A DNA stretch of 56,250 nt from Candidatus Hodarchaeum mangrovi (lineage in GTDB: Archaea; Asgardarchaeota; Heimdallarchaeia; Hodarchaeales; Hodarchaeaceae), in assembly GCA_016839515.1 (NCBI GenBank), contig JAEOUE010000054.1, positions 1 to 56,250 on the forward strand, in the 5' to 3' direction. Of the stretch, positions 311-53,240 are shown piece after piece. The stretch's first letter is position 1. Every line of letters begins with the position of its first letter. The position numbers were made by a program, and so were the translations under genes. The notes beneath the pieces are model-generated. The model was not told the origin of the DNA and made no database searches. It saw nothing but the letters and a program-made list of their open reading frames with translations.

Positions 311-1132
311 TCATTCTTTAGCACGCTGTGATTTAACAATAAAGGCAGTCATCCTCTTCATTTCTTTTTCCATGCTATCTAGTTGAGTATTGATTTTCGT
401 TTGGACTGCAGTGTCAATTTCCTGTTGAATTACTTGTGGTAATGCAGAAAGATTTTGATTCATTCTTTCAATAGAGGTTGTGAGTCTTTGCAAGCTTTCA
501 TCTTGAAATGCCATTCGTTCGGCAACAGAAGTTTTTAGCTCGTTTACTGAGGCTTCTAGATAAATAACGATTCGATCTCTTAGAGATGATAATTCTACTT
601 GAATGATCGCATTTACACGGTCTCGGAGATCTCCAACGGTAGCGAGTTGGTCAGCTTGATTCTCGAGCAACGAATTCAATCCACTTTCAATTTGCTGCAA
701 TGCATCATTAATCATTAGAAAATTAGTTATACTAGCTTCATATTGTTCCTTTGTTTTCTCTGTTGAGGTCTTCACCATGTCACTTATTTGTAAAGAAAGA
801 TTTCGCATATTTCCAACGACATCTTCCACGTAACTAACTTTAATAAACTTCAGATCGTCTCGTGTCTCTTTAGCTAGAGATTCAAATGCCTTCTGAAATG
901 ACGAAATAGATTGTTCTAGGGTTTGAATGATCTGAGGTAATGTCTGAATCGAATTCTGTAAAGTTCCACTTATTCTTGTATTTTGAATTTCTTGAGATAA
1001 TTGATCAGTTGTTGATTTAAGATCTCCAATCGAAGCAACCATTATTTTTAAAGATGAAGTGATTTCACCAAATCTTCCCATCATTTCTTTTGTTAATTGT
1101 TCAATAGTTCTCAGTGTTTCCTCGATTCCCAT
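311..1132 (-). CDS. Coiled-coil protein, last gene of the tubulin-like cluster
   Basis: 273-aa ORF, heptad-rich (L/I/Q/E/S), with almost no Pro, Trp or Cys; SD-like GGTGAGG just upstream of the ATG. Confidence 0.8.
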   Translation of the reverse strand: MGIEETLRTIEQLTKEMMGRFGEITSSLKIMVASIGDLKSTTDQLSQEIQNTRISGTLQNSIQTLPQIIQTLEQSISSFQKAFESLAKETRDDLKFIKVSYVEDVVGNMRNLSLQISDMVKTSTEKTKEQYEASITNFLMINDALQQIESGLNSLLENQADQLATVGDLRDRVNAIIQVELSSLRDRIVIYLEASVNELKTSVAERMAFQDESLQRLTTSIERMNQNLSALPQVIQQEIDTAVQTKINTQLDSMEKEMKRMTAFIVKSQRAKE

Positions 1133-1285
1133 ATTAAAACCTCACCAATTGTTTTTTATCTTTAAATAATATCTCAGGATCGTTTTTATTATATTTAGTG
1201 CTCAAATAATTTGTTTCAATAAGGATTTTTTGGTGTATAAAATATGCTATGACTTGGTCCATCGTATCATATATGAAAGTCCATC

Positions 1286-2332
1286 CTATTTTAAACGTCT
1301 TAAATAACGAACATATCTTTCATTGGCTAAAAGAGAATCATTGATTTTATGGATAAGAATCATTGTTTCTGAATAAAGAAATTGTCTGAATTCATCTTGT
1401 GGATACATTTTCATTTCCTGATAACAAGATTTAACAATATTAAACGAAACGTTTGGAATTCGTGTTTCCAAGTCACCTGGGCCAAGATTAAAACCCCGTA
1501 GTACATTCATTGACACTCTTAGTGAGTCGGAAAGATTTCTTTTGCCCAATAAAAATGCAGAGACATTAAAAAAATATTGTTTAATTATATCTTGGACTTC
1601 TTCTTTTTCAAAAGGGAGAATTTCCTTTCCAGTTTCATCAGGAAACAACTTTTTTAAATTCTGTAACAAACGAGCTGATGGAGCTTCTCTTAATAACTTC
1701 TCGATCAGTTCCTGTAACTTTTGGGAAGGGATCTGGTATATTTCATGATTAGGAACATCATTTATTTCCTTTTGAATTCTAAATCGAAAAATCTCTTTAC
1801 AGCCTTCAAAATAATAATAGGGAAACGCAATATGAGACAGATTGGTATAGTTATCCATAAATGATCTCAATGATTCTATCAATCCCCAAGAATCGGTATA
1901 ATATGGATCTAAGTCAAAAACACCTATTTGTTCTTTTGCAGCTATAATAGGTTTTGATTGATCATTTACTTCCATTATTAAAGTTTCTTTTGGAATGTCT
2001 GTTTCAAGTAACCCATCTAATTTTGATTGAAGAGTTGTTATTTTTTCTATCAACTGTAAATCAGAATCAGGTTGAGCCTGAAGCGCTATAATGAAATCAT
2101 TAATTAATCGTACTTCTCGCATAATATCTTCTGGCACAGGTAGGGATTCTGATAGTTTTAGAAGGATTTTTATTGTGAGATTTAGGGTAAGGACATTTAA
2201 TCCTACTAAAGTATTAATTTTTTCTCCCATATTTCCTCGTGATTTCCAAAACTCTGTTTTTAAATCAGAAGGCAGAGATATTGAGGAAGAAGCATTATGA
2301 GGGTCAGTAGGAGGTGAATTTTTTTCATCCAC
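1286..2332 (-). CDS. Hypothetical alpha-helical protein
   Basis: 348-aa ORF with GTG start and AAGGTG SD-like motif; 14 bp downstream of the tubulin-like gene. Confidence 0.75.
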   Translation of the reverse strand: MDEKNSPPTDPHNASSSISLPSDLKTEFWKSRGNMGEKINTLVGLNVLTLNLTIKILLKLSESLPVPEDIMREVRLINDFIIALQAQPDSDLQLIEKITTLQSKLDGLLETDIPKETLIMEVNDQSKPIIAAKEQIGVFDLDPYYTDSWGLIESLRSFMDNYTNLSHIAFPYYYFEGCKEIFRFRIQKEINDVPNHEIYQIPSQKLQELIEKLLREAPSARLLQNLKKLFPDETGKEILPFEKEEVQDIIKQYFFNVSAFLLGKRNLSDSLRVSMNVLRGFNLGPGDLETRIPNVSFNIVKSCYQEMKMYPQDEFRQFLYSETMILIHKINDSLLANERYVRYLRRLK

Positions 2333-2346
2333 TTGTTTCCAGCACC

Positions 2347-3735
2347 TTATGTTGATTTCTGTTCTGGTGTAATGTAATAACCAAATAATTTCTCAAGATC
2401 ATTTACCGCGTTAATTAATTCTTCTCGGGTTGTACCTTTTGAACGCTTGAACCAATGTTGTTTTAACTCGGAGTCACCGCTATGTAGTTGGATCAATGAT
2501 TTGGCCTCTTCTAGAATGTCATGAAGTTCTGGAATCTTTGGAAGACCGAATAAGAGAAGTAAGGAAGCTTTGGTGGCATCATCATCATAAGCACAATAAG
2601 TTGGAGAAATACTTGCTCCTTTAGCTAAAAAAGGCGTAAGAGATTTTTTTAGAAAAGGATCAAATTCAACCCGAGCAATATCCCGGGATCCACTCAATAC
2701 AGAAAATACCGATGAAGCAGCAGGGTTATTACCCATATTGGTAAGACTACAGTTTGAAACTGTATATTCAATTGCTGTATTGAGCTGTGATCCCATTCCT
2801 CCGACTTCAGGAAAGACAGTTAAATCATTAAACATAGCAGGAACTACAACACTATCAAGTTTTAACGCAAAATCTCCGATATCAGTAGTTGGAAGTACCT
2901 CTTTTCCTATTTCAGGGACTCCAGGCGAAAGCATTTCAGCAATTGATTCCAACGCAAGAGGATTTATTAACTCCACAAATTGTTCTTCGAGTTGAGTTGG
3001 AAACTCATTAGAATCTTGTCCTAATATTATTGGAGTTGTTGACTTTAATTTCTCTTTACTTAAATCAGCTAAATCATTTCCAGTTTGTCTGCTTAAAAGA
3101 TCTACAGATTCTCCTCTTTGCATACTAAGCACCCGTTCAAGCATTGTTCGATTAGAAAGAAGAAGTATTAGATCAGGACCCATGTTTCCCTCTTCTAGCT
3201 GCAAACGAAGAAGCTTTGACAAAGCCCAAACACTATTCACAGCTTCACTTGACTGGTTATTGAATGGTAGAACACCAAAAACATAAATGAAAATCTTCCG
3301 TTTTTCTTGTTCTGCAAATCTTTTTCTTAACAAACGAATTAACGCAGGAGTTCCTCCACAACCTGTTCCCCCTCCAAAACTAGTGAAAATGCAAAATCCA
3401 CTGATTCCTTCGTATCCGAGCGCTTGTAATTGATTGAGTATAATATCTTCTGAGCTAATAACTGCATCAAATCCCGCAGAAAATTTCCCACCCACACCAA
3501 TTTCAGCATCAGAATAAAGTAAAGTTCGTTTCGACGATATTGAATATTTTTGTCTTGCTTTAAGCAAATCACCCCGATCCGTGTTCATTACTAAATATTC
3601 ACGAATTCGTGGTGGAAGTTCACCTTTTTTAGATCTAGCTAGGTAGCTCCCTACAAGATTGCTACCACATTCCCCTAAACCTATACAGAATACCTGTGAA
3701 GTATTTGAATTAACAGTTTCCATTTTTATTACCAA
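2347..3735 (-). CDS. Divergent tubulin/FtsZ-superfamily GTPase (CetZ/FtsZ-like)
   Basis: T1 IGLGECGSNL, T2 NTD, T3 GVGG, T4 signature GGGTGCG (3355-3375), VLPF, T7-like TTDIGD; true start probably the ATG at 3723. Confidence 0.9.
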   Translation of the reverse strand: MVIKMETVNSNTSQVFCIGLGECGSNLVGSYLARSKKGELPPRIREYLVMNTDRGDLLKARQKYSISSKRTLLYSDAEIGVGGKFSAGFDAVISSEDIILNQLQALGYEGISGFCIFTSFGGGTGCGGTPALIRLLRKRFAEQEKRKIFIYVFGVLPFNNQSSEAVNSVWALSKLLRLQLEEGNMGPDLILLLSNRTMLERVLSMQRGESVDLLSRQTGNDLADLSKEKLKSTTPIILGQDSNEFPTQLEEQFVELINPLALESIAEMLSPGVPEIGKEVLPTTDIGDFALKLDSVVVPAMFNDLTVFPEVGGMGSQLNTAIEYTVSNCSLTNMGNNPAASSVFSVLSGSRDIARVEFDPFLKKSLTPFLAKGASISPTYCAYDDDATKASLLLLFGLPKIPELHDILEEAKSLIQLHSGDSELKQHWFKRSKGTTREELINAVNDLEKLFGYYITPEQKST

Positions 3736-3804
3736 TTGATATCTTTCTATTCTTTCTTCAAATTTCTCATCTTTATGTTCGTTTACTATATAAGAATGCT
3801 AGAT

Positions 3805-6800
3805 TTACAGTAGTGACACTCCAGTTTTCAATTCAATAAATAATCTCATCGCTAAGGATAGATAGGCGCGAATTACTCTATTATTAGGATATGTTTCCGA
3901 TATCTTTTTTTCTATTTCCTTGAATTGTCGAATATTTTCTTCTGGGCTGTCTGTTGGAATATATCTAGGACGAAACATCCTTATTGCCCTATGCCACTTA
4001 TTTAGCTGAATTGCAACCTTCTTCCATTCTTCACGTTGATCATCAATTTGGGGAAGTAGTTCTAAAATGAAACGTAAATCATGTGATGACATTAATTCTT
4101 CCCGATCATTTACCAACTTTGACAAAGGGAAAATTTTCTTAGATGCTTCTTTTGTATAATGTTTGTATACTTCTTGTATATTAGAATAATATTCAAATTT
4201 CCCTAGTTCAGATTGAACCACAGCATTTTGTTCTTTTTCTATTTGTTTGACAATATTAATTATAATTTGCCGGACTCCAGCTAATTCTAAGATAGCTTTT
4301 GTTAATCTACCGACATGGTTAGTAGCTGCGGTCTCCTGAAATTTGTTTAAGTACATTAAATCAATACGTTCATCATGTCTTAGATCTTTTTGATAATTTA
4401 AAAAGAGATATTCAATAGTCTCTTGAATTTCAGTTATATATTTCGTTCCCATATCTCTTATAGCCTTACATGCTTTAGAATCGTTTTGTAATTGATCAAT
4501 TTCTACAAAAACTTCTGTAATCTCTTTGAGTTGAACATCTTCTTGATTTTTCACAATAATTTGGCTAAATCGTTCAATATAATGCCCGACATATTCGATG
4601 ATATTTATTCCAACTTCTTTCAAATCATTTACATTTTTTAAGACATTTCGTGATTCATTGACTGCTTGTGATAACAAGATAGCAACAATTTCAGTGTCAT
4701 ACAAATAAATTAATTGTCGTAATTTGTGAGCAAGACGTTCATGGGAAACCTCTTCAGGTTCAAAATTTGATATTTTTTCTTCTGCACTAAATATTACTGG
4801 ATCAAGGGGTGCAATTTCGTTAATTCTTGGTAAGCTTACCCTAATCCAGTTATATAAATTCTGATGAAGCTTAGCAAGGGAATCTTTTGCCATCTGGAGG
4901 CTTTCAAGACTATAACTTTCGAAAATGTTAACTAAACGAACAATATCCTTGTGAGTCTTAATTTCTTCCATCCGTTCTTTCATTAAATCAACTGTTTTAT
5001 CAAAAAACTCTGCATACTGTCGTGGGAGTTTGGAATAGTCTTGAATATGAGAAGAAATTTCTCTTTCCATTTGTTCTGCAAGTGTTGCAGATTTACGTTC
5101 AATGTAAGACTTTAATTGCCAATATTCTGTTAATGCTTCAGAATAATCAAGATTTTCAAATTCTCTCTCTGGTGTATAAGAAACTAAGACCTTTTGGGCC
5201 TTAAATAATCTATAAAGTCGTTTATCAACACCCTCTAAGCTTTCTAACCGTGTTTTTAACTCAACTAATATCTCATTTTTATTTTCTTCAATTTTTTCCA
5301 AGAATGAGATATAATCCCGAATTATTGATTCGATATCACCTGCTTCAGCGTATTTATCAACCAATGAAACTATTTCATTACGTTTTTCACGTAAATCATA
5401 TTGTGTTTCGATTGGAAGAAGAGGAAAAGGGATTGTTTTCAGATTTTCCCGAACACGGGTGGATATTTTATATTTCCAAACAGGAATTTTTTCGTATTCA
5501 TCCAATAACTCTTGAATTGAGCCTTCTGAAGCCACATTAATATCTTCACGGAACGCTTTAAGATCATCAAAGACTAAAGGAGGGACATGAGATTTCAATT
5601 TGGGAGGAATTGTCTCCAAACTTATTAGCTGATTAAGAATAGGGTGAATTTCACTATCAATAGCATTCCAAAGTTCATTTTTAATGCTTTGATTGAGACG
5701 ATTTAAACTCTCAATCTCTTTAACAAGTTCTCTTATCTCAATATCATCAGAGCTTTTTTGCGCTTTTATTACTTCGATCTTTTCTTTAAGATCATTCGAG
5801 AGAATTTTTTGGATACTTTCGCGAGAATCATAAAGATTTATCAAATTTTGACGTAAACTTTGCTGTGCAGGTTTTGAAAAGAAAGCAACGAGTCGAGTTT
5901 CCCATTCCTTAATTTCTCGTGCCTTATTAACTAATTCACTTGTAGTAAGGGAATCAAAATCCTTTATTGTTGGAATTGGAGGCCCATTACTGACATTAAT
6001 CACTTCTTGGATATGTGGATTTTCTAATAAACGGAAAAAGTAGTTTTGACAACCTTCTGCTAATTGAGATTTTAAATCATAAAATCGTTTGATTAAAAAT
6101 ACCCAATTCTGAAGACCCTGAGTTTTTTCAGCTTCCTTTTCAATTTCATGTATATTTTCAACAAAGTTTTCAGGAGTTGGAATTTTCATAGCCCCAATGG
6201 TCTTTGAGGCATTAATTAATTCTGCAGTACCTACTAATTTTTTCGCATTTAATAATTGTTGTTGGTACCAAGACCGAATTTTTTCAATATCTTGAATGAT
6301 AATAGGAATCGAAGAAGTAGAAACATCAATTTCTGGAGTTGAGGTATTGCTAATATCCATTGGCTGATCTCCTACAATCTGGAGAATCCTACCAATTTGA
6401 TCTTCTGTCTCGGTTTTAAGTGAAATTTCATAGGTTCGTAATAAATTAATATATTCTTTACTTATATTGTTCAATTGCTTTTCTAAATCAAGTAATTCTT
6501 CAACGGAGATCGTTCCTTCAATTTTTGTTCGAATTTCAAGTAGTTCTTGTTTCAAAATAAGAGGTTTATCTCCTAGATTTAATCCAATAGACTCAACTGT
6601 GTCTAGATGCTGTTGTAGTTCTGAGATCATTTGGATGATTGCAACTTGAATTTTACCTTCGGTTCCTTTTTGTTTTTGTTTCAAATAGGCATTTTCTGTT
6701 TCTAAATCATCATATAATGTTAACAAATCAGGAATAGTCATGACATGTATGCTTGCTTTTGTCATTTTACTAGTTAAACGGATTTTTTCTTCATTAAATT

Positions 6801-7320
6801 CTATGAATTTGCCATATAAATCAACGATTTCGCGGTTAAAAACAAGAGTTGAAAGGGTTTTCCCTCTTAATACTTCGGAAATCTGATTATAAATTTTCAA
6901 AACTGTAGAGCTAAATTTTATAATTTGGTCAGGATTGAAACTCGGAATTTGTAGCTTTCTGATCGCTTCTGTCTCTTGAGGGATAAACTTGGCAATTTCT
7001 TTAATATTATTTGCCAAATCAAAGTAAATTTTTCTAAATCCAACAAGCAACGTATTTAAAAGGTCTTCTGTAAGTTTTTTATACTGAACAAGGTTTTGAT
7101 CAAGAGATTTTTTTAGTCCTCTTTTTTTAAAGAACCCAGCAGTTTTAAGCTCTTTTTCTATTCTTTCAATCTCAATTACTAGTTTCTGGGCCTCATTTAC
7201 TGTTGATACTTGGACTGTGGGGTCAATTGAACGTAATTCAGTTGTTAAATCACGAATAACCACTATCTGAGCCTTGGAAACTAGATCTTTGTTTACCGAT
7301 GACATTTTCCTAGCATCCAT
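3805..7320 (-). CDS. Giant alpha-helical repeat / coiled-coil protein
   Basis: 1171-aa ORF rich in E/K/L/I, with recurring amphipathic helices; no Walker motifs and no TM segment. Confidence 0.8.
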   Translation of the reverse strand: MDARKMSSVNKDLVSKAQIVVIRDLTTELRSIDPTVQVSTVNEAQKLVIEIERIEKELKTAGFFKKRGLKKSLDQNLVQYKKLTEDLLNTLLVGFRKIYFDLANNIKEIAKFIPQETEAIRKLQIPSFNPDQIIKFSSTVLKIYNQISEVLRGKTLSTLVFNREIVDLYGKFIEFNEEKIRLTSKMTKASIHVMTIPDLLTLYDDLETENAYLKQKQKGTEGKIQVAIIQMISELQQHLDTVESIGLNLGDKPLILKQELLEIRTKIEGTISVEELLDLEKQLNNISKEYINLLRTYEISLKTETEDQIGRILQIVGDQPMDISNTSTPEIDVSTSSIPIIIQDIEKIRSWYQQQLLNAKKLVGTAELINASKTIGAMKIPTPENFVENIHEIEKEAEKTQGLQNWVFLIKRFYDLKSQLAEGCQNYFFRLLENPHIQEVINVSNGPPIPTIKDFDSLTTSELVNKAREIKEWETRLVAFFSKPAQQSLRQNLINLYDSRESIQKILSNDLKEKIEVIKAQKSSDDIEIRELVKEIESLNRLNQSIKNELWNAIDSEIHPILNQLISLETIPPKLKSHVPPLVFDDLKAFREDINVASEGSIQELLDEYEKIPVWKYKISTRVRENLKTIPFPLLPIETQYDLREKRNEIVSLVDKYAEAGDIESIIRDYISFLEKIEENKNEILVELKTRLESLEGVDKRLYRLFKAQKVLVSYTPEREFENLDYSEALTEYWQLKSYIERKSATLAEQMEREISSHIQDYSKLPRQYAEFFDKTVDLMKERMEEIKTHKDIVRLVNIFESYSLESLQMAKDSLAKLHQNLYNWIRVSLPRINEIAPLDPVIFSAEEKISNFEPEEVSHERLAHKLRQLIYLYDTEIVAILLSQAVNESRNVLKNVNDLKEVGINIIEYVGHYIERFSQIIVKNQEDVQLKEITEVFVEIDQLQNDSKACKAIRDMGTKYITEIQETIEYLFLNYQKDLRHDERIDLMYLNKFQETAATNHVGRLTKAILELAGVRQIIINIVKQIEKEQNAVVQSELGKFEYYSNIQEVYKHYTKEASKKIFPLSKLVNDREELMSSHDLRFILELLPQIDDQREEWKKVAIQLNKWHRAIRMFRPRYIPTDSPEENIRQFKEIEKKISETYPNNRVIRAYLSLAMRLFIELKTGVSLL

Positions 7321-7572
7321 AATATAATCTCTTGCTTTCTTTCTTTGAGAAAGCTACTTGTCCATACTATATAATTTAATATTATGCTTAAAACATTCTT
7401 TCACAAATGTCTTACCTTATTAAAATATAATCTAATTCAATTACTTAAAAAATTCTATTCAAATATGCTGTCTATTAATGACTTAATCTGAGTATGAATC
7501 TCTTATCAATTCAAATCAATATACATAAATTCAATAGGATTTATCATTTTATAATCTAAAACTCATCCTTTA

Positions 7573-8382
7573 ATGGTGCTGCTAATGAACCAAGTCTTAA
7601 TAATAGCAATTGGAAATGAATTGCTTTCAGGAAAAACGGTAAACACAAATTCCACTTTTCTAGCAGAAAAATTAACTAATCTTGGATTAACTGTGAAAAA
7701 AATCCTAACTCTTCCAGATGAAAGAGAAATAGTTGTATCAGAATTAACTAATGCCCTAATTAAAAAGAATTATAGAATAATAATAATAACAGGAGGATTA
7801 GGCCCTACTTGGGATGATTCCACGGCGAGTTTTCTAGCTGAGACCTTAAATGTTCCCCTTAAAATCCACCCTGAAGGAATTAATATTGTTACTCAGCGTT
7901 ACCAAGAATTGTATAGAAATGGGTTGGTTGATACAGAGAAAATTACCTCAGCACGAAAGAAGATGGCTTATTTGCCTGTAGGGGCAAAACCCATTTATAA
8001 TCCTGTTGGAACAGCACCAGGTATATATTTTGATCATAAACCTTCCAATTGTTGGATTTTTTGCTTACCTGGAGTTCCTAAAGAAATGCAAGAAATGTTT
8101 TCTATCATTGAACCTCAATTCCATGATATTCAGAAAAAAGAACATTTAGAATTCTACGAAGAAAATCTAATAGTTCCTTTTACTGATGAATCATTGTTAG
8201 CACCTTTTTTAGACCAAGTAAGAGAAAAATTCAATGTTTGGATTAAATCTCTTCCAAAAACATATCAAGAAGGGGAAAATATAATGTTAATCATATCTTT
8301 CTCATCTGATAAGAATGGGGAAGCAAAAAATACGGTTTTAAAGGCAAAAGAATATCTTAATTTATTGATTAAATCAAAATGA
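7573..8382 (+). CDS. cinA: CinA-like molybdopterin-binding-fold protein (archaeal form, no PncC domain)
   Basis: IGNELLSGKTVNTN, TGGLGPTWDD, NPVGTAPG and LPGVPKEM motifs. Confidence 0.88.
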   Translation: MVLLMNQVLIIAIGNELLSGKTVNTNSTFLAEKLTNLGLTVKKILTLPDEREIVVSELTNALIKKNYRIIIITGGLGPTWDDSTASFLAETLNVPLKIHPEGINIVTQRYQELYRNGLVDTEKITSARKKMAYLPVGAKPIYNPVGTAPGIYFDHKPSNCWIFCLPGVPKEMQEMFSIIEPQFHDIQKKEHLEFYEENLIVPFTDESLLAPFLDQVREKFNVWIKSLPKTYQEGENIMLIISFSSDKNGEAKNTVLKAKEYLNLLIKSK

Positions 8383-10906: not shown

Positions 10907-11866
10907 CTAAACTTCTTCATTATTTTCCTCAGAATCTTGTTTAGGTTTATATATATCAAGCGGCCATTGTTTTCTTATTAATTTAGTAAGTACATGGGAA
11001 TCAAATTGATCAATTTCGATTGAGGAGGAAGCAGTTTTCATCAAACGTTCTGCAATTAGCTTTGACCGGACAACCGAGTCTGAATATCCAATTATCATTC
11101 CTACGACAAGGGGATGAGTTTTAACAACCACTAATTGGAGATCAGAAGCTGTAATTACTTCCATTCCTACAGGATTTTTCGTTAATTGACTCATTGTTTC
11201 GCTTATTCCACTATTGAACTGATCTAGGATGGTTTTGGAGATATTTACAAACTTAGCAGTCCAAATCGAATGTGACTCTAAATCAATCATGATGACTACA
11301 CGAAGTTTACAACGAAAAGTTGATTCAGATCCTGATAAAACATCTGCTAACCAATCAAAAGCATCATAGAAATTCTCCCCTGTCTTTGCAGAAATTCGGA
11401 ATAATCCAACTGGACGAGAAGAACGAACAGCATGGGTTAAATTTAAATCTTTAACAATAGAATCAAATGGTCTAGCACCTGGAAGGTCAATTTTATTAGC
11501 AATGAATAGTACAGGTGCCTCGGGATTATGTTTAATGGATTCCCAAAAAGCTTCAGAAGCTTCTTTTAATCTAATATCTGCAGAGTCTAGTACGAAGACA
11601 ATGGCTGAAATTCGTTTTTCAAGAGCTGGTTTCCATAGTAGATTCCGATATATTTCTTGACCACCCAAATCAACGATATTAAATAATATCTGACGGTATT
11701 TAACAGTTCGATAATTAACACCTAAAGTTCTGGTTGTAGGGATAAATTCAGATCGTAGCATACGGTTTACAATCGTTGTTTTTCCTGCATTATCTAACCC
11801 AATGATAACAATTTCGTAGTTTATGGTTTCTTTCCCTTTGAAAATTCTACGTAGAATACTTGACAT
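10907..11866 (-). CDS. Arf-like small GTPase fused to a C-terminal longin/roadblock-like domain
   Basis: GLDNAGKTT, DLGGQ, NKID, SAK; N-terminal amphipathic helix; about 135-aa alpha/beta C-terminal extension. Confidence 0.88.
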   Translation of the reverse strand: MSSILRRIFKGKETINYEIVIIGLDNAGKTTIVNRMLRSEFIPTTRTLGVNYRTVKYRQILFNIVDLGGQEIYRNLLWKPALEKRISAIVFVLDSADIRLKEASEAFWESIKHNPEAPVLFIANKIDLPGARPFDSIVKDLNLTHAVRSSRPVGLFRISAKTGENFYDAFDWLADVLSGSESTFRCKLRVVIMIDLESHSIWTAKFVNISKTILDQFNSGISETMSQLTKNPVGMEVITASDLQLVVVKTHPLVVGMIIGYSDSVVRSKLIAERLMKTASSSIEIDQFDSHVLTKLIRKQWPLDIYKPKQDSEENNEEV

Positions 11867-14781: not shown

Positions 14782-16164
14782 TCATAATTGGGTCTGAATT
14801 GGAGTGTTAGATCGAACTACTTTGATATCCTGATAGTTACCCTTTTGTCCTATTTTCAATGAGCCATATGTACCATCATACCCATAAGGATGAAAAGTAA
14901 AGACACCATTCTTTACTTGAATGATTGCATTTATTAAATTCTCATCTATTTGTCCTTCTAAAGAATCCTTAAGTTTGGAGACTGGAAGTTGCCAAAGAGT
15001 ACTTTCAGGGCCGATAATTTCAACTATCTTCTGATACATCGAAATAAGACGTTTTGCTGTTTTTGTCTTAATCTTATAAATGTCACTGAGAATATCTATC
15101 AATGGAACCATTCTAATAAATTTATTATGAACTTGAAATTCACCTAAACGCCTATCAGCATTTTGGGCTTTACTTATCTCACAACATCGTTGATATACAC
15201 CAATGGTTAGTGTTTTGTTGCATATAGGACAAATATCATTTGTTGGAACATGTTGAGGAGAAAAATAACAGTATTCTTTCAAACCGTGTTTTCCTGGACT
15301 CTTTCTTCCAGGACGATGACCAGTCAAAAAGAATCTTCCCTCTTCGGGTGGAAATTCAGCTGTAAGTTCAATTTTTTTGTTTCGTAAAGCAGTTATCATA
15401 TTAGGATAGGTTACTTTTGCCAAATTAATAATGGTAAATTCCCTGCCCATTCGATGTAGAGCTCCAGAGTGAGCATCAGAACAGGAAATTAATACACGAT
15501 TATCCAGTTCAGGGATAAGTGATAAAAATTCAGGATCTGCAGAAAGACCGGTTTCAAAAATAGTCATTCGGGATGTAACATCACCAAAAAACTCTTTAAG
15601 TGTATTAACTCTGATATCTGATCCATAAATCCCCTGTGGAGTCATTATATGTGCAGGTATCGCTTCAATTAAATCATCTATATCTAAGATGGAATTCAAT
15701 TTGGTGGATACTTCGCTTGAACCTCGGCATTTAATGAAAGGTCTAGCCATTTTCTCATGCTTTACATCCCATGAATCTAAATATTCACGAAAGCGATCAA
15801 CCGAATTAAAACTAGGAAAAAGGAGAAGGAGATGAACAATTTTAGATCGTACTCCTATAGGAGCTGTAAAAATTACTTCACTCTGCAAGACGAATTTAGT
15901 ATTAATCTCATCAGGAATAATAAATATACCATTTTCTTCTTCTAGAAGTATGTTTTTGAGTATTTTTGTCCAAGGTAAAAATTGGCAATCTCCTGTCCCT
16001 ATTATATCGATTCCTTTCAATGGCATTGTTTGGTTTGTTATTTCTAAGTGTTTTAGTGCTTTTTTTCTATTTTCATTCATAAGTTCAGAGGAAAGTTTTA
16101 AGGCTTGAGTTCCTCCTGCAAAAACAGAGTGGGCATGAAGATCAACTGTAATTTTCATAATCAT
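14782..16164 (-). CDS. PHP-domain endonuclease Q family protein
   Basis: DLHAHS, GTGD, PAHIMTP, ETGLSAD, SDAHS, GREFT, CPIC..LTIGV, GYDGTYG. Confidence 0.85.
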   Translation of the reverse strand: MIMKITVDLHAHSVFAGGTQALKLSSELMNENRKKALKHLEITNQTMPLKGIDIIGTGDCQFLPWTKILKNILLEEENGIFIIPDEINTKFVLQSEVIFTAPIGVRSKIVHLLLLFPSFNSVDRFREYLDSWDVKHEKMARPFIKCRGSSEVSTKLNSILDIDDLIEAIPAHIMTPQGIYGSDIRVNTLKEFFGDVTSRMTIFETGLSADPEFLSLIPELDNRVLISCSDAHSGALHRMGREFTIINLAKVTYPNMITALRNKKIELTAEFPPEEGRFFLTGHRPGRKSPGKHGLKEYCYFSPQHVPTNDICPICNKTLTIGVYQRCCEISKAQNADRRLGEFQVHNKFIRMVPLIDILSDIYKIKTKTAKRLISMYQKIVEIIGPESTLWQLPVSKLKDSLEGQIDENLINAIIQVKNGVFTFHPYGYDGTYGSLKIGQKGNYQDIKVVRSNTPIQTQL

Positions 16165-16176
16165 ACCAATTTTATT

Positions 16177-17445
16177 TCATTTCTTATTTTGGTATTCTAG
16201 AGCTTGCTCGCTTACCAGTTTTAATAGTCCTACTCCTTTTGTTGAGTCACCAACCATGAATAATGAAATATCATTTGTACTATTCTTTGCCCATTCTAAA
16301 GCAATTGTATTAGAACCATGTTGAGACATAACAATTTGTACCAATGATGTTCGAAAAAGACGAGTACATAAATGATTGGTTTCTTTATATATTTGACAAA
16401 TAAAAGCATGTTTTTTTATTATTTGTTCATTACTTGATCTTAAAGCTGTTACTTTGTTATTAGAACATTTTAACAAGGAAACGTCTGTAACTATAGGAGA
16501 ATATCCCTTTAGAAATTCAAAACTAGCATTTATATAATCATTATCTGGAAAAAGATCTATCGCATTCTCAATAGTTGTTTTATATCTTGATATGTGAACC
16601 TTTGGTTTAAATGCATTCCGTACATTCATTTCCCATAAAATTTCTCTGAAAATTCGGAATAGACTTCCCAATCTCCCTTTTCCAGAACTAAATGCGATAA
16701 CGAAATTATTTTCTATGGCGATAAGATAAAATTGTTGATTATTATATGTTTTCCCATGAATTTCTATTGGGAGAGCATCAAAGAAAGTTCCTGATATTTT
16801 CAATTCTCCTTCGTAATCTATTATCAAAGAATGGATTTGATTTACTAGTGAGATAATCTCAGGAGATAAAATAAGATTATGAACAGCTCTTATTGTACCA
16901 TCAGATATGACAACAGTTTCCTTTTCCGTACACATTTCACTAACAATAGTTTGGATAGAACTATCAATCTCCGTCAGTAAAACTTTTTTGATGTTATTGA
17001 ATATTTTTTCTAAAATATATTCGGGATAAAACTGCTCATTATGAACTTTAATATCCTGAATCGCTTCCTGAAGTATATTTGATACTGTTAATGAGTGTTG
17101 CAATAGTTTATCTTGATGAGATCGAGGAATAAATAACATAAAACTTTCTATTCGATTTTTGCCTCTAGCACGAGAGTCCTCTATCACAAACGAATGAATT
17201 AAAACTCTACCTTGTATACCTGTCACATTAATTGGGATTATTGCTGTATCAGGTTCACCAGTAGGCTCACCAACTCCTATTGCCATTGTAAATAATGTAG
17301 TTGTCACCCCTTGTAAAATAATTTTAGGGATATTTAGTTCATGTGCGAAATAGGATTTTAAAACAGGCCCGTGTTCCTCATCAAAAATAATATGAGCTAG
17401 AAAGAATTTGGTAGGAATACTCTTACTTGAATCTAATGGATTCAT
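16177..17445 (-). CDS. Longin/uDENN-like (FLCN/SMCR8-type) domain protein with further alpha/beta (roadblock-like) modules
   Basis: N-terminal FDEEHGP and DSRARGKNR motifs; G[RV]LG/GVGLL segments resemble roadblock C-terminal helices. Confidence 0.6.
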   Translation of the reverse strand: MNPLDSSKSIPTKFFLAHIIFDEEHGPVLKSYFAHELNIPKIILQGVTTTLFTMAIGVGEPTGEPDTAIIPINVTGIQGRVLIHSFVIEDSRARGKNRIESFMLFIPRSHQDKLLQHSLTVSNILQEAIQDIKVHNEQFYPEYILEKIFNNIKKVLLTEIDSSIQTIVSEMCTEKETVVISDGTIRAVHNLILSPEIISLVNQIHSLIIDYEGELKISGTFFDALPIEIHGKTYNNQQFYLIAIENNFVIAFSSGKGRLGSLFRIFREILWEMNVRNAFKPKVHISRYKTTIENAIDLFPDNDYINASFEFLKGYSPIVTDVSLLKCSNNKVTALRSSNEQIIKKHAFICQIYKETNHLCTRLFRTSLVQIVMSQHGSNTIALEWAKNSTNDISLFMVGDSTKGVGLLKLVSEQALEYQNKK

Positions 17446-25255: not shown

Positions 25256-25952
25256 AATTAATCGACCATATGTTATTCTCTCGGCAGCAATGAGTTTGAA
25301 TGGTTATATTAGCTCGCTAGATGGAGATTCAGAGCTATCAAATAACCAAGATTGGCAACGAGTTCATAATTTACGTATGAATTCAGATGCAATCATGGTA
25401 GGGAGTGAAACAATAAAAAAAGATGATTCAAAGCTTACCGTTAAAGAGGAATATGTAAAAAAATCAGTTTTACGTCATCCAATCAGAATTGTGGTTAGTT
25501 CAAGAGGAGATATTCCTGTTAATTCACGCATAATTACTTTTCGACCTGAAATAAAGACAATTATTGGCACAACATCATTATGTTTAAAACAGAAACAACA
25601 AGAATTAGAAAATTTAGGATGTGTGGTCATTTTATGTGGAGATGGCCCTTTAGTTGATCTTGAAATGTTGTTAAAAGTATTAAAAAAAGATTTTAAGATT
25701 AATGTGTTGATGCTTGAGGGAGGTGGAACCTTGAACGTCCAAATGCTCAAATTACAGTTTATAGATGAGATTCAGCTTGCAATAGCACCAGTAATTTGTG
25801 GATCAGGAACGAATTTATTCAATGATAAGTATCTATTTCGTAATTTTAAAGATTCTCCTCTTTTCTGTTTTAAGGAAGTTAACAGCTTAGGAGATATGAT
25901 TTTTACTCGTATCGTTCTTCAATATTCTCCAAGAATCTATTCCAATGTTTAG
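25218..25952 (+). CDS. RibD-C family pyrimidine nucleotide reductase (archaeal ArfC/Rib7-like)
   Basis: AAMSLNG, VH.LR...DAIMVG..T...DD.KL, LMLEGG, APVICG; probable start is the ATG at 25236. Confidence 0.88.
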   Translation: MEKLLYMKNSKCRINRPYVILSAAMSLNGYISSLDGDSELSNNQDWQRVHNLRMNSDAIMVGSETIKKDDSKLTVKEEYVKKSVLRHPIRIVVSSRGDIPVNSRIITFRPEIKTIIGTTSLCLKQKQQELENLGCVVILCGDGPLVDLEMLLKVLKKDFKINVLMLEGGGTLNVQMLKLQFIDEIQLAIAPVICGSGTNLFNDKYLFRNFKDSPLFCFKEVNSLGDMIFTRIVLQYSPRIYSNV

Positions 25953-26866
25953 ATAAAGAAACCACTAAGTAATATAGGTACCATAAAGGAAATTACAGTA
26001 TAAATGATTATGATTACCATTGAATTTGATCCCAGAGAATCTAATTGCCTTATACTAAGGTAAATTAAGAGGATTCCATATAAAAAGATAATTAAATTCA
26101 AAATAGAAAGAAACAATTGAAATATTTCGGAAGAGGGAGTAGCTAATAAATTTTGTAATTCAGATTGACTCGCGATAGTAGCAGTTTTCGGAGATATAAA
26201 AATTAAGTTGTGTAATATATTGATTAGTTCTTCAAAGATTCCAGGAAGAGAAGCCCATCCAATAACTGTTAAATTGACACGATAACTCCTCAATTCGGGT
26301 GAAACTTGTGTTGCAAAAAGCGAGTGTAATATCCAAAGTATTAAAGCGTTTATTACCCAATTTACGATTAATCCTAATGGAACAAATAAAGCAGATATAT
26401 ATATTGAAATTTGAATGATCGAAGTCAATTCAGCGTCACTAATTTGGCCTCTAGGTAATCCTAAACTGTTAATATAATCCTCAGTAAAAGTTAAGGAAAG
26501 TTTGGAGAAAAAAATTAGTAGTCCAATTCCCGATAATATTCCCACAATTAAAATCATTATCAATGGTTGTTTTACATTAGGTCGTTGGATGATACGTGCC
26601 ATTTCTTCTTTAGGCGAAAAAAGTACTCCACGAAAGTGAGTAAAAAAAGGTAACGGTGGTTCAAACCTCTGGGATTGAATCCGATATCCTGGTTGGTATT
26701 GCAAAGGAGGACTTGGTTTTTGCATAATAAAAGGTTTGGTTAGATTACTAGTAACAGCTTGTCCGCAATTCCCACAAAAAGTGGCATTTTCTATTAATTT
26801 TGATCCACAATTCCCACAAAATTGTGGTTTTTCTGGATCAGTTATTCCTGAATTCATTAAGATCAA
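25949..26866 (-). CDS. Zinc-ribbon plus Yip1-domain membrane protein
   Basis: FCGNCG twice at the N-terminus; VLFSP.E then about 5 TM helices with GWASLP. Confidence 0.8.
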   Translation of the reverse strand: MILMNSGITDPEKPQFCGNCGSKLIENATFCGNCGQAVTSNLTKPFIMQKPSPPLQYQPGYRIQSQRFEPPLPFFTHFRGVLFSPKEEMARIIQRPNVKQPLIMILIVGILSGIGLLIFFSKLSLTFTEDYINSLGLPRGQISDAELTSIIQISIYISALFVPLGLIVNWVINALILWILHSLFATQVSPELRSYRVNLTVIGWASLPGIFEELINILHNLIFISPKTATIASQSELQNLLATPSSEIFQLFLSILNLIIFLYGILLIYLSIRQLDSLGSNSMVIIIIYTVISFMVPILLSGFFI

Positions 26867-28683: not shown

Positions 28684-29232
28684 TTATTTTTTAGTATACT
28701 CCAAAATTTGCTTTCCAAGTTCGTTGAATGCTTCTTCAACGCCAGTTCCAGACTTTGCACTTGTTTCTAGGAATTTTATTCCTAGTTTAGTTGCAAGAGA
28801 TTTACCTTCTTCAGTAGAGACAGCTTCTGCTCCTTCCTCACGAAGGTCAATTTTATTAGCAAGCAAAACCACTGGTACCTTTTGATCGCGTCCCGAATGG
28901 GACCACATGTCATTTAACCATTTCTCAATATTTTGAAAGGTTAGTCTACGAGTGACATCATAAACTAACACTCCACCAAATATTTTAGTGTAGTAAGCTT
29001 TAACAACATCTTTGAAGACAGGTTGACCAGCTAAATCCCATATTTGCCAACGAATGTGGGTATTTTTAATTTCAGTATCATAAAGCGCAAAGTCAGCACC
29101 CATAGTACTCATATAATCTGTACTGAATCCTTCACCTAAGTACCTTTTCCGGAGGGAAGTTTTACCAACTGCACCATCTCCAATTAAAACAATTTTCCAT
29201 AATCGTCGATCTTCACTCATTTTCTTCACCAA
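28684..29232 (-). CDS. Rab-like small GTPase
   Basis: GDGAVGKT, YMSTMGADF, WDLAGQ, NKID, ETSAK; no C-terminal Cys; probable start is the ATG at 29220. Confidence 0.93.
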   Translation of the reverse strand: MVKKMSEDRRLWKIVLIGDGAVGKTSLRKRYLGEGFSTDYMSTMGADFALYDTEIKNTHIRWQIWDLAGQPVFKDVVKAYYTKIFGGVLVYDVTRRLTFQNIEKWLNDMWSHSGRDQKVPVVLLANKIDLREEGAEAVSTEEGKSLATKLGIKFLETSAKSGTGVEEAFNELGKQILEYTKK

Positions 29233-52434: not shown

Positions 52435-52595
52435 CCATTATTCCCATGCTTTAACTTTATCTGATGAATTCTTACAAATGATCATGATTATGAATGAATG
52501 TTTACTCGATTGATTAACTTTATTTATTGTTTGAATATACCACATTCTCGAAATATAGCTACAAAAGTTTATGTTTTTTTACGTTATGGTTTGGA

Positions 52596-53240
52596 ATGAT
52601 ATTGAGTCAAAAGATACGTGTGTTTAAAAAACGAATCCAAATTTCTCAAAAAAAGTGGAATTCAGTCCAAAACGAATCTCTTCGAATAATTAACTCTATA
52701 CTTACAATTATTTCTCGTTTAACTCTAACTCAGAAAAATGGTACTTTTTCTGAAAATTTATTAGAAAAATTCCCAGAAGTCCCCGATAGAATTGCATTTT
52801 ATTTGACTGATATTATAAATCATAATATTTCCGAGCTTAACTCTTACATTCAGCAATTTACAGAAATTCTTAATGAAATGAAGAAAATTGAAAAGGAATT
52901 CAAACAGGATTTTTTTGTGTTAATAAAAAAACAAGTAATTGATCATCGTAACCCATCTTCATTAGATTTAGAGATAATTGAGCAAGCAGAGGAGACCATT
53001 CAAGAGATAGTGGATATGTATCAAGTTGAACTTGCTTTAAGAAATCAAATTTTTCATGAACTTCAAAATCCAAGTGATTTTAAACCTGCAAGAATAACAG
53101 CGAATTTAGTTCTTTGGTCTGCGGAGGTGTATATCGAATCCTCACGTATTCGTGATTTATTTGAAGGATTTTCCTTAGTTGAGAAACTTTGTGAGAAAAT
53201 TCAAACAGAAAATTCATTAAATTCTTTATCTAAATCTTAG
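52596..53240 (+). CDS. Helical protein resembling eukaryotic C1orf109 (AIRIM)/CINP
   Basis: W.S......I.S...I..RL, L.KFPEV.DR, I.EIV.MY..EL.LR..I, terminal W..E.YI; ATG at 52596 preferred (ORF open from 52527). Confidence 0.55.
   Translation: MILSQKIRVFKKRIQISQKKWNSVQNESLRIINSILTIISRLTLTQKNGTFSENLLEKFPEVPDRIAFYLTDIINHNISELNSYIQQFTEILNEMKKIEKEFKQDFFVLIKKQVIDHRNPSSLDLEIIEQAEETIQEIVDMYQVELALRNQIFHELQNPSDFKPARITANLVLWSAEVYIESSRIRDLFEGFSLVEKLCEKIQTENSLNSLSKS

Follow-up and report, generated by a model that had tools for sequence, protein, structure and literature searches.

A conserved module of Asgard archaea comprising genes for an Asg.Tub tubulin-family GTPase, a giant helical rod protein and a helical partner

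Introduction

What kind of system is encoded where the gene of a tubulin-superfamily GTPase stands in line with genes for large helical proteins? The question is raised by a locus of Candidatus Hodarchaeum mangrovi (assembly GCA_016839515.1, contig JAEOUE010000054.1), analysed here in a window of 56,250 nucleotides (positions 1 to 56,250, forward strand). The original prediction had proposed a four-gene "dedicated filament plus scaffold/adaptor module" without a described system to match.

Research into the tubulins of Asgard archaea has concentrated on the true ones (Odin, AtubA/B, Heimdall alpha/beta), for which abstracts report that microtubule formation was shown. The more widespread Asg.Tub family has served only as a tree outgroup. 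It was presented by Santana-Molina, del Saz-Navarro and Devos in 2023 (PMC9871819) as a 'CetZ-like group in Asgardarchaeota', built from four sequences (NSEQ 4) and located outside CetZ in the published trees, at an unstable position. The accessible text of that paper describes the Asg.Tub neighbours as unknown, mostly coiled-coil genes and the gene contexts of CetZ and CetZ-like groups as unrelated. Beyond PMC9871819, no use of the name 'Asg.Tub' was found in the literature searched.

Results

The four genes lie in a row on the minus strand. The first encodes the giant all-helical rod protein (3805..7320, 1171 aa, ATG start) and is followed by the tubulin-like GTPase (2347..3735, an ORF of 462 aa with a TTG start), by the helical partner P3 (1286..2332, 348 aa, GTG start) and by the coiled-coil protein P4 (311..1132, 273 aa), whose ATG is preceded by a ribosome-binding-like GGTGAGG motif. 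Sizes, common orientation and gaps of 69, 14 and 153 bp had been predicted and agree with the ORF list. Since all four genes have homologues in related genomes, arranged in the same order, the ORFs are real rather than due to chance. For the tubulin gene, an ATG four codons in, at 3723, appears the more likely start (about 458 aa), because the closest homologues are 454-461 aa long and align from there. The gene upstream of the rod gene (7573-8382) is on the opposite strand, and the AT-rich intergenic region of 252 bp 5' of the giant gene (7321..7572) is presumed to contain its promoter since the flanking genes diverge. The neighbours of the module encode a MoCF-type protein, a CDC48 ATPase and an Arf-family GTPase. 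No division genes were found near the module, sepF included, as had been noted before, and SepF (PF04472) had no match in the whole H. mangrovi genome, which is 91.3% complete.

Only the 462-aa protein matched a family in Pfam and NCBIfam; rod, P3 and P4 had no match above cut-off in either collection. The match was to the Tubulin/FtsZ GTPase domain PF00091 at residues 15-175 (E 1.4e-15, 58.5 bits against a cut-off of 33), a domain carried by 120 of the 120 homologues among the matches listed. The best solved relatives in a profile search were CetZ1 (4b46, E 1.6e-13), CetZ (3zid, E 2e-8) and CetZ2 (4b45, E 1.9e-7). Tubulins ranked after the CetZ entries, with OdinTubulin (E 3.3e-6) and AtubA (E 3e-5) as weak profile matches, and no FtsZ was among the best 60 solved matches. 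Similarity to CetZ covered residues 16-176, that is the GTPase domain, the second domain contributing about 0 bits. We rejected an assignment as FtsZ, given that the FtsZ equivalog model TIGR00065 scored 28.1 bits against a cut-off of 295.2 and that the real FtsZ of the genome sits on contig C63. A eukaryote-type tubulin was rejected as well; the matches (E 4e-7 to 6e-5) were confined to some 60-130 residues surrounding T4. Altogether the H. mangrovi genome holds three PF00091 loci, one for FtsZ and two for Asg.Tub paralogues.

The affiliation with Asg.Tub was assessed with the published profile Asg.Tub-C.hmm, over 26 of its 237 nodes. The consensus of nodes 18-43 matches the helix-7 region of the family, and agreement reaches 17 of 18 defined positions for the family consensus, 20 of 22 for a Thor-type row and 15 of 22 for the H. 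mangrovi protein. Judged by these sequence comparisons, the 462-aa protein belongs to Asg.Tub, the CetZ-like Asgard clade named in 2023. Among 21 Asg.Tub orthologues and paralogues, the T1 loop G19-x-G21-E22-x-G24-x-N26, the T4 signature G121-G-G-T-G-C-G127 and the residues N167, N195 and N258 were invariant. The same was true of D285 and D288, which we infer to be T7 residues; their stretch lines up with T-D-L-G-D-F of CetZ 3zid, in a weak second alignment domain. In FtsZ and tubulin polymers, GTP hydrolysis is activated by acidic T7-loop residues, with which each subunit completes the active site of its neighbour. Mean column identity was 65% for the tubulin versus 29% and 35% for its partners.

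The three other proteins had been expected to be helical, and the models of rod and P3 agree with this, P4 giving sub-threshold coiled-coil Pfam matches only. Neither rod nor P3 matched a recognisable fold or known family, and for the 1171-aa rod no Pfam family appeared at E values up to 1. Its AlphaFold2 model is entirely alpha-helical (pLDDT 83.1, pTM 0.40). When alignment slices were compared profile to profile, residues 261-390 matched residues 391-520 with a probability of 95.8% (E 7.8e-9). Thor-type orthologues (873-932 aa) are gapped across residues 361-645 of the H. mangrovi rod; this lineage-specific stretch (5386..6240, minus strand), delimited by orthologue alignment, corresponds to approximately two extra 130-residue repeats. 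In the Hodarchaeum genus the family profile of the rod matches in two overlapping pieces. Model and alignments together indicate that the rod is a chain of helical repeats of about 130 residues, two of them extra in the H. mangrovi lineage. This predicted architecture and the lineage-specific extra repeats are new in this analysis. A relation to GCP/Spc97-Spc98 (GRIP) proteins was also considered: no GCP family was among the 25 Pfam families listed for 23 rod orthologues and no GCP chain among the Foldseek or VIA matches listed for the rod, whose model is too long for the sensitive per-domain search.

P3 consists of a variable N-terminal helical bundle, a disordered linker and a conserved C-terminal domain (residues about 131-348, nt 1289-1942). 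Its all-helical model has a pLDDT of 79.3, mostly above 90 in the C-terminal domain, and D147, P171, P218, L222, G284, E289, R291 and K348 were invariant in 21 sequences. Its family comprises only 51 cluster representatives among 1.84 billion proteins. For P4, 127 relatives were found, with Hodarchaeales-type labels or none; some of them have an N-terminal zinc ribbon or weak apolipoprotein-type matches.

Profile searches of the same 400 Asgard genomes detected the rod in 129, the tubulin in 126 and P3 in 123, and each of the three in 32 of 90 high-quality genomes; P3 is a single-copy gene in nearly all genomes that have it. The trio was present in the genome families f1, f2, f8, f10, f11, f12, f28, f30 and the f31 group, and absent from f4 (0/31), f20 (0/135) and f19 (0/14). 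Asg.Tub homologues among the 120 matches listed had an Asgard label, the label 'archaeon' or no source name; within these homologues and the 400 genomes, the family occurs in Asgard archaea only, in what GTDB calls Heimdallarchaeia and Lokiarchaeia. The rod gene was directly upstream on the same strand at 115 of 139 tubulin matches, with a median gap of 59 nt. In all complete loci examined, paralogous ones aside, P3 followed directly 3' of the tubulin gene. The order rod-tubulin-P3 was kept in 19 of 19 non-paralogous distant loci, often with overlapping stop and start codons, and was conserved over at least nine genome families, between which the flanking genes are completely different. Even a metagenome contig of 1669 bp with a very divergent P3 carried an Asg.Tub C-terminus directly upstream. 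Linkage is not absolute: in some genomes of the Hodarchaeum genus (G057, G060) 4.3 or 9.8 kb separate the rod gene from that of the tubulin, an unrelated 1202-aa gene stands between the two at locus L015, no rod gene was found within 8 kb upstream of the tubulin at L014, and P3 is about 8 kb away in G387.

P4 was present in 17 of 19 close loci and in none of 20 distant or paralogous loci; it is an add-on of the Hodarchaeum genus. The conserved unit is therefore the trio of rod, tubulin and P3 and not a quartet. Synteny across Asgard genomes, proposed beforehand as a check, thus upheld three genes in fixed order, strictly co-conserved across distant lineages, and removed the fourth, confined to one genus, from the predicted module.

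A second rod-tubulin pair, on contig C186, shows 24% identity for the rod and 53% for the tubulin. Such a pair, without P3, occurs in 8 of 22 genomes of the Hodarchaeum genus. In both the tubulin and the rod tree, the sister group of the paralogues consists of f2 and the main copies from the Hodarchaeum genus, the enclosing clade being supported with 100/97 and 100, respectively. These congruent trees point to a joint duplication of rod and tubulin within the Hodarchaeales-type lineage; the paralogous pair and its joint duplication are new in this analysis. As the pair has no P3 of its own, P3 would be dispensable for some rod-tubulin pairs, or shared. Both trees follow the genome families, which argues for vertical descent. 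The locus is an operon-like module of Asgard archaea that is chromosomal and inherited vertically.

Discussion

The GTPase of this locus does have a published counterpart, contrary to the original prediction. PMC9871819 describes the same family, Asgard-restricted and with mostly coiled-coil neighbours, but its accessible text defines neither a partner set nor an operon and reports no distribution or function. The possibility raised beforehand, that the GTPase would fall inside a characterised clade with known partners, did not materialise. Nor does that account, as far as it is accessible, contain the fixed trio, the rod repeats, the paralogous pair or a fourth gene specific to one genus.

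The conserved gene cluster probably encodes a filament system. We consider it likely that an Asg.Tub filament, a rod scaffold and a P3 adaptor act together in cell shape or organisation. Of the module originally predicted, a dedicated unit of a GTPase with helical partners stands, while P4 falls outside it. Asg.Tub would bind and hydrolyse GTP and polymerise head-to-tail like CetZ, FtsZ and tubulin, as expected because the nucleotide-contact motifs and both acidic T7 residues are invariant. The rod, as a chain of helical-bundle repeats of lineage-dependent number, may bind along these filaments or cross-link them, serving as scaffold or spacer. P3 may be a stoichiometric adaptor, cap or regulator acting via its conserved C-terminal domain, and its hydrophobic N-terminal helix possibly links the polymer to another structure. 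As neither partner has a recognisable fold, the terms scaffold and adaptor are taken from architecture and gene linkage. A more specific version, which we hold to be rather unlikely, is a composite cytoskeleton in which a spectrin-like ruler decorates or cross-links the tubulin-family polymer. Repeat number (about 7 in Thor-type, 9 in Hodarchaeales-type and more in one sister lineage) would set filament spacing or length, and P3, together with P4 in the Hodarchaeum genus, would couple the polymer to the membrane.

The near one-to-one phyletic pattern and the tight coupling of the trio would also suit stoichiometric subunits, so that Asg.Tub might be the GTPase of a discrete, non-polymeric complex with rod and P3, working as a nucleotide-dependent switch or assembly factor. 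The unusual conservation of the tubulin relative to its partners could be read in the same way. The invariant D285 and D288 speak against such a complex, as does the fact that all characterised close relatives known to us, CetZ and the tubulins, form polymers, and we judge it unlikely. Membership in the tubulin/FtsZ superfamily, together with a genome that has one canonical FtsZ and no PF04472 match, might instead suggest an auxiliary or alternative division apparatus with rod and P3 in place of anchors such as SepF. Canonical FtsZ (TIGR00065), however, was found in 189 of 189 Asgard genomes at least 90% complete, which makes a core division role unlikely, and the module in only about a third. 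FtsZ copy number is one in the Hodarchaeum genus and two in f31, and one or two genes occur with the module or without it alike. With the profile matches to CetZ and tubulins rather than FtsZ and no division genes nearby, we find this explanation quite improbable; the likely role of the Asg.Tub filament would, as for CetZ, lie in cell shape, protrusion or the internal organisation of the cell and not in core division.

That linkage is broken in a few genomes might indicate genes that are merely co-regulated neighbours in one process, their products never binding each other. An order kept over at least nine genome families despite completely different flanks, overlapping stop and start codons and an adjacent pair duplicated together with congruent trees make this very improbable. 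TubZ and PhuZ are tubulin relatives serving plasmids and phages (PMC12583498), and TubZ-TubR-tubC and PhuZ likewise have dedicated adaptor genes beside the tubulin relative. DNA partition of the TubZ type or anti-virus defence on a mobile element would also fit the patchy distribution across the phylum. We nevertheless regard a mobile-element function as extremely improbable and rejected TubZRC-type partition: none of the four proteins has a Pfam DNA-binding domain, PADLOC gave no meaningful match, the locus is flanked by chromosomal housekeeping genes that the genus has kept in place, and the trees indicate vertical descent.

Several known systems resemble the proposed Asg.Tub filament with its partners. 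CetZ shares the GTPase-domain motifs and a T-D-x-G-D-F T7-type motif, but the likeness is limited to the N-terminal GTPase domain and CetZ, according to the accessible text of PMC9871819, is without fixed operon partners. The same source describes BtubA/BtubB-BtubC of Prosthecobacter, where a tubulin-superfamily polymer likewise shares its operon with a helical-repeat protein, by which the filament is stabilised. That system uses heterodimers of true tubulins (BtubA/B) and, as the partner, a 'kinesin light chain' protein of the TPR type (BtubC), whereas the Asgard module has only one GTPase, which is CetZ-like, a rod (900-1300 aa) that matches neither TPR nor any other Pfam family, and a third protein. 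OdinTubulin, AtubA/B and Heimdall alpha/beta-tubulin belong to the tubulin superfamily of Asgard archaea too, but to a different family. The architecture predicted for the rod resembles that of spectrin/plakin-type three-helix-bundle rods, elongated tandem arrays of helical-bundle repeats of about 110-130 residues in variable number.

All in all, the module is a defined three-protein system, one GTPase with two obligate-looking partners, found in roughly one third of the Asgard genomes sampled. It offers two natural experiments, the variation in rod repeat number and the duplicated rod-tubulin pair without the third gene. A Hodarchaeales member has been cultured, as cited in PMC12583498, and localisation studies may therefore become possible. 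Few known lineages stand closer to the eukaryotic host lineage than Hodarchaeales-type and Thor-type Asgard archaea, and the module touches the question of how tubulin cytoskeletons acquired partner proteins. If the rod were indeed a ruler for the polymer, the module would prefigure in prokaryotes, by analogy or descent, those tubulin polymers that are controlled by structural proteins dedicated to them; in the Hodarchaeum genus it would already have split into two specialised rod-tubulin pairs, much as tubulin isotypes have diversified.

The gene cluster and its surroundings

The four genes lie co-oriented on the minus strand, and the ORF positions bore out the predicted sizes and intergenic gaps (69, 14 and 153 bp): a rod-like giant protein of 1171 aa at 3805-7320, a tubulin homologue of 462 aa at 2347-3735, P3 of 348 aa at 1286-2332 and P4 of 273 aa at 311-1132. 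The window is AT-rich, with a G+C content of 29-36%. The tubulin ORF opens with TTG, but an ATG four codons further in is preferred as the start because the homologues are 454-461 aa long and align from that ATG. Only the 462-aa protein matched a family (PF00091, Tubulin/FtsZ GTPase, 58.5 bits, cut-off 33). The FtsZ equivalog TIGR00065 reached 28 bits, with a cut-off at 295, and rod, P3 and P4 gave no family above cut-off in Pfam or NCBIfam.

The neighbours of the cluster, which encode a MoCF-type protein, a CDC48 ATPase and an Arf-family GTPase, are not related to division, and the lack of division genes such as sepF was confirmed: PF04472 (SepF) found no match across the whole 91.3%-complete genome. 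A SepF too divergent for this model may explain the missing match.

The Arf-family GTPase (10907-11866, minus strand), three genes away from the cluster, is extended at its C-terminus by about 140 aa. Like a Ras-family GTPase further along (28684-29232, minus strand), it is a small GTPase of the eukaryote-like kind that Asgard genomes typically encode. At 14782-17445 (minus strand), a 422-aa protein with a Folliculin N-terminal domain (PF11704, 28 bits, cut-off 23.3) adjoins a 460-aa protein without family, followed by two small ORFs of 120 and 160 aa; the two larger proteins may constitute a folliculin/FNIP-like longin-DENN pair. At 52527-53240 (plus strand), a 237-aa protein matches PF15011, a C1orf109-like family of eukaryotic ribosome biogenesis (42 bits, cut-off 27).

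Identity of the GTPase

A profile built from 21 tubulin orthologues and paralogues matched, as top solved structures, three CetZ entries (4b46, E = 1.6e-13; 3zid, 2e-8; 4b45, 1.9e-7). Beta-tubulin (4e-7) and OdinTubulin (3.3e-6) came next, then gamma-tubulin, BtubA and AtubA, and FtsZ was not found among the best 60 structures. All these matches were confined to the N-terminal GTPase domain. The motifs G19-x-G21-E22-x-G24-x-N26 and G121-G-G-T-G-C-G127, as well as N167, N195 and N258, were invariant in all 21 sequences. So were D285 and D288 within T-T-D-x-x-D, which aligned, if weakly, with the T7-type stretch of CetZ. In the tubulin/FtsZ superfamily, the acidic residues of T7 act on the nucleotide of the neighbouring subunit within the polymer. 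The invariance of D285 and D288 is the main reason why we infer that the 462-aa protein is a polymerising GTPase.

According to the original prediction, the system could not be matched to anything described. For the GTPase this did not hold. A "CetZ-like" Asgard group was named Asg.Tub by Santana-Molina et al. in 2023 (PMC9871819); the paper describes its placement between CetZ and tubulins as unstable and its neighbours as "unknown genes", mostly with coiled-coil regions. The consensus of the authors' Asg.Tub-C.hmm was compared over nodes 18-43, 26 of its 237 nodes. Our family consensus shared 17 of 18 defined positions with it, a Thor-type orthologue 20 of 22 and the window protein 15 of 22. 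This agreement identifies the family as Asg.Tub, as far as these 26 nodes reach. The name turned up in this one paper only, and the literature searched contained no description of Asg.Tub partner proteins.

Conservation of rod, tubulin and P3

Synteny was compared at two distances. Among 19 loci of near relatives, whose labels were either Hodarchaeales-type or wrong, giant, tubulin, P3 and P4 kept this order. The rod gene was present in 17 of them, the misses being a contig that begins inside the tubulin gene and a locus without rod within 8 kb, P3 in 18 and P4 in 17, with both P4 absences at contig ends. A distant set comprised 20 loci, one of them paralogous and the other 19 from eight other genome families, and all their ORFs were searched iteratively. 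Giant, tubulin and P3 followed each other on one strand in this order in all 19 non-paralogous loci, where the stop codon of one gene often overlapped the start codon of the next. P4 was found in none of the 20. The genes flanking the module were completely different between genome families.

In scans of the same 400 Asgard genomes the tubulin was found in 126, the giant (profile A1) in 129 and P3 (profile A2) in 123, each in 32 of 90 high-quality genomes. Related genomes do not count as separate observations, so these numbers are inflated; what can be treated as independent is the genome family, of which there are about nine. The family tallies of the three genes coincided: all were present in f1, f2, f8, f10, f11, f12, f28, f30 and the f31 group, and all were absent from every other family scanned, including f19 (0/14), f20 (0/135) and f4 (0/31), the last of which belongs to the same class as the window. 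The rod lay directly upstream and on the same strand in at least 115 of the 139 tubulin matches listed, at a median gap of 59 nt. Another twenty had no rod on their contig among the matches listed, many of them being contig-end fragments, and in four it was farther off. P3 was 8 kb away from the tubulin gene in one genome.

The conserved unit is therefore the trio of rod, tubulin and P3, with P4 as a genus-specific gene. The predicted dedicated module stands for these three genes, which are co-conserved across Asgard families; it does not stand as a quartet.

The linkage is occasionally broken. In one genome of the genus a co-oriented ORF of 1202 aa (locus L015, 4145-7753) separates the rod from the tubulin gene, and two of the four displaced rods belong to other genomes of the genus that have gaps of 4.3 and 9.8 kb at this very place. 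This suggests that the rod-tubulin junction is a recurrent insertion site in the genus. The 1202-aa gene was considered as a third rod paralogue and discarded (hhalign probability 0.3%, no Pfam family).

Properties of the rod, P3 and P4

The model of the rod was wholly alpha-helical, with 44 helices, a mean pLDDT of 83.1 and a pTM of 0.40, the latter as expected of an elongated multi-domain chain. When 130-residue slices of its alignment were compared profile to profile, the rod showed internal repeats that were in register. The slice 261-390 matched the slice 391-520 with a probability of 95.8% (E = 7.8e-9), and several other pairs reached 70-94%. The number of repeats is approximate, since helical segments of like composition can score too high in this kind of comparison. 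The parts of the rod conserved between lineages are residues 1-360 and 650-1171. Thor-type orthologues (873-932 aa) lack residues 361-645 of the window rod, and the family profile hits the rods of the window's genus as two overlapping pieces. Judged from these alignments, about two repeats were gained in the window's lineage. Elsewhere the rod measures about 1025 aa (f10, f11) or 1311 aa (one f2 genome).

No known fold emerged for the rod, which had no match in Pfam, NCBIfam or PDB profiles. In Foldseek the top rows were dynein tails, at E = 0.05 and TM of at most 0.12, in the ESM Atlas only a Thorarchaeota hypothetical protein of its own family, and in a VIA-wide search only generic helical bundles. 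Homology to GCP, gamma-tubulin-complex-type proteins, TBCD or other tubulin binders was unsupported, the long model being a poor query.

In the model of P3, a helical bundle of variable sequence at the N-terminus is joined by a low-confidence linker to a helical domain at the C-terminus (about 131-348), where pLDDT mostly exceeds 90. E-A-P-x-A-R-L-L-Q, W-G-G-P-D-L-E-K-R and a C-terminal lysine are among its conserved motifs. There was no Foldseek match (best E 0.19), and the VIA matches were confined to the N-terminal bundle. The first helix is hydrophobic, with a 19-residue Kyte-Doolittle mean of 1.64 in the window protein; close relatives reach values as high as 2.25, and most other lineages lie at 1.2-1.8. 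No stretch of rod, tubulin or P4 reached a mean of 1.6. This helix could associate with a membrane or simply form the core of the bundle.

The P3 family is tiny: among 1.84 billion cluster representatives its profile picked out 51 proteins, and the 11 of these that were scanned contained no Pfam domain. It includes a divergent subgroup seen only in metagenomes; P0152, of this group, had no relatives among genome contigs. On one 1669-bp metagenome contig of the subgroup, P3 is directly preceded by an Asg.Tub C-terminus 59-61% identical to Hodarchaeales-type proteins. Another family member, P0149 (602 aa), is longer at its N-terminus by about 285 residues; this additional region is acidic, serine-rich, without Pfam family and probably disordered.

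P4 is a coiled-coil protein and a genus-level add-on. Its 127 relatives bear Hodarchaeales-type labels or none, and some begin with a zinc ribbon or give weak matches of apolipoprotein type. The 153-bp region upstream of P4 is its own and is accompanied by a ribosome-binding-like motif. A 201-aa ORF that follows P3 in a sister-family locus (L024) was not matched by the P4 profile and was rejected as a diverged P4. The zinc-ribbon family of some P4 homologues (PF13240) also occurs N-terminally in a Yip1-domain membrane protein of the window (25949-26866, minus strand).

A second rod-tubulin pair

Outside the window, the same genome carries on contig C186 (locus L004, 3040-7821) a rod paralogue of 1143 aa directly upstream of a tubulin paralogue of 445 aa, 24% and 53% identical to the respective window copies. 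This pair has neither P3 nor P4 and lies between two genes for Gtr1/RagA-family GTPases, one of 301 aa and one encoding a 612-aa fusion; the contig ends with a third related ORF. Upstream of the rod paralogue is a 310-aa gene, which was rejected as a diverged P3 (hhalign probability 0.1%). Of the 22 genomes of the genus, 8 have the pair, with its two genes adjacent in every case, and P3 was single-copy in all eight.

In the tubulin tree the paralogues formed a long-branched clade, sister to f2 plus the main copies of the genus (enclosing clade 100/97). The rod tree was computed by a fast method, and its branch support consists of SH-aLRT values alone; it had the same arrangement with a support of 100. 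The timing of the duplication is provisional because both trees were midpoint-rooted without outgroup. The congruence of the two trees indicates that the adjacent genes duplicated and diverged together, and among the present results this co-duplication speaks most strongly for rod and tubulin working as a pair.

Function of the module

Canonical FtsZ was present in all 189 Asgard genomes at least 90% complete, as a single copy in the window's genus (11/11, including the present genome) and as two copies in f31 (40/40). Lineages without the module likewise had one or two. Since FtsZ occurs in all these genomes and its copy number is unrelated to the module, the latter is an accessory system and no substitute for the division protein. 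Replacement of a lost FtsZ paralogue fails as well, the distributions of both being unrelated. A role in TubZ-type partition or in defence was also considered. Pfam detected no DNA-binding domain in the module, its context was not that of a mobile element, and hits in the defence-system libraries were limited to a weak coiled-coil similarity between P4 and ZorA, all of which argues against both. A CetZ-like structural role is favoured.

Such a module would have a GTP-dependent Asg.Tub polymer as its structural core. The modular rod and the smaller adaptor P3 would bind and organise this polymer, to which the window's genus would have added P4 as a coiled-coil accessory.

In conclusion, the Asg.Tub family had already been named; a module with defined partners, a rod built of repeats and a duplicated pair is undescribed in the literature searched. 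The module is a good target for biochemistry.
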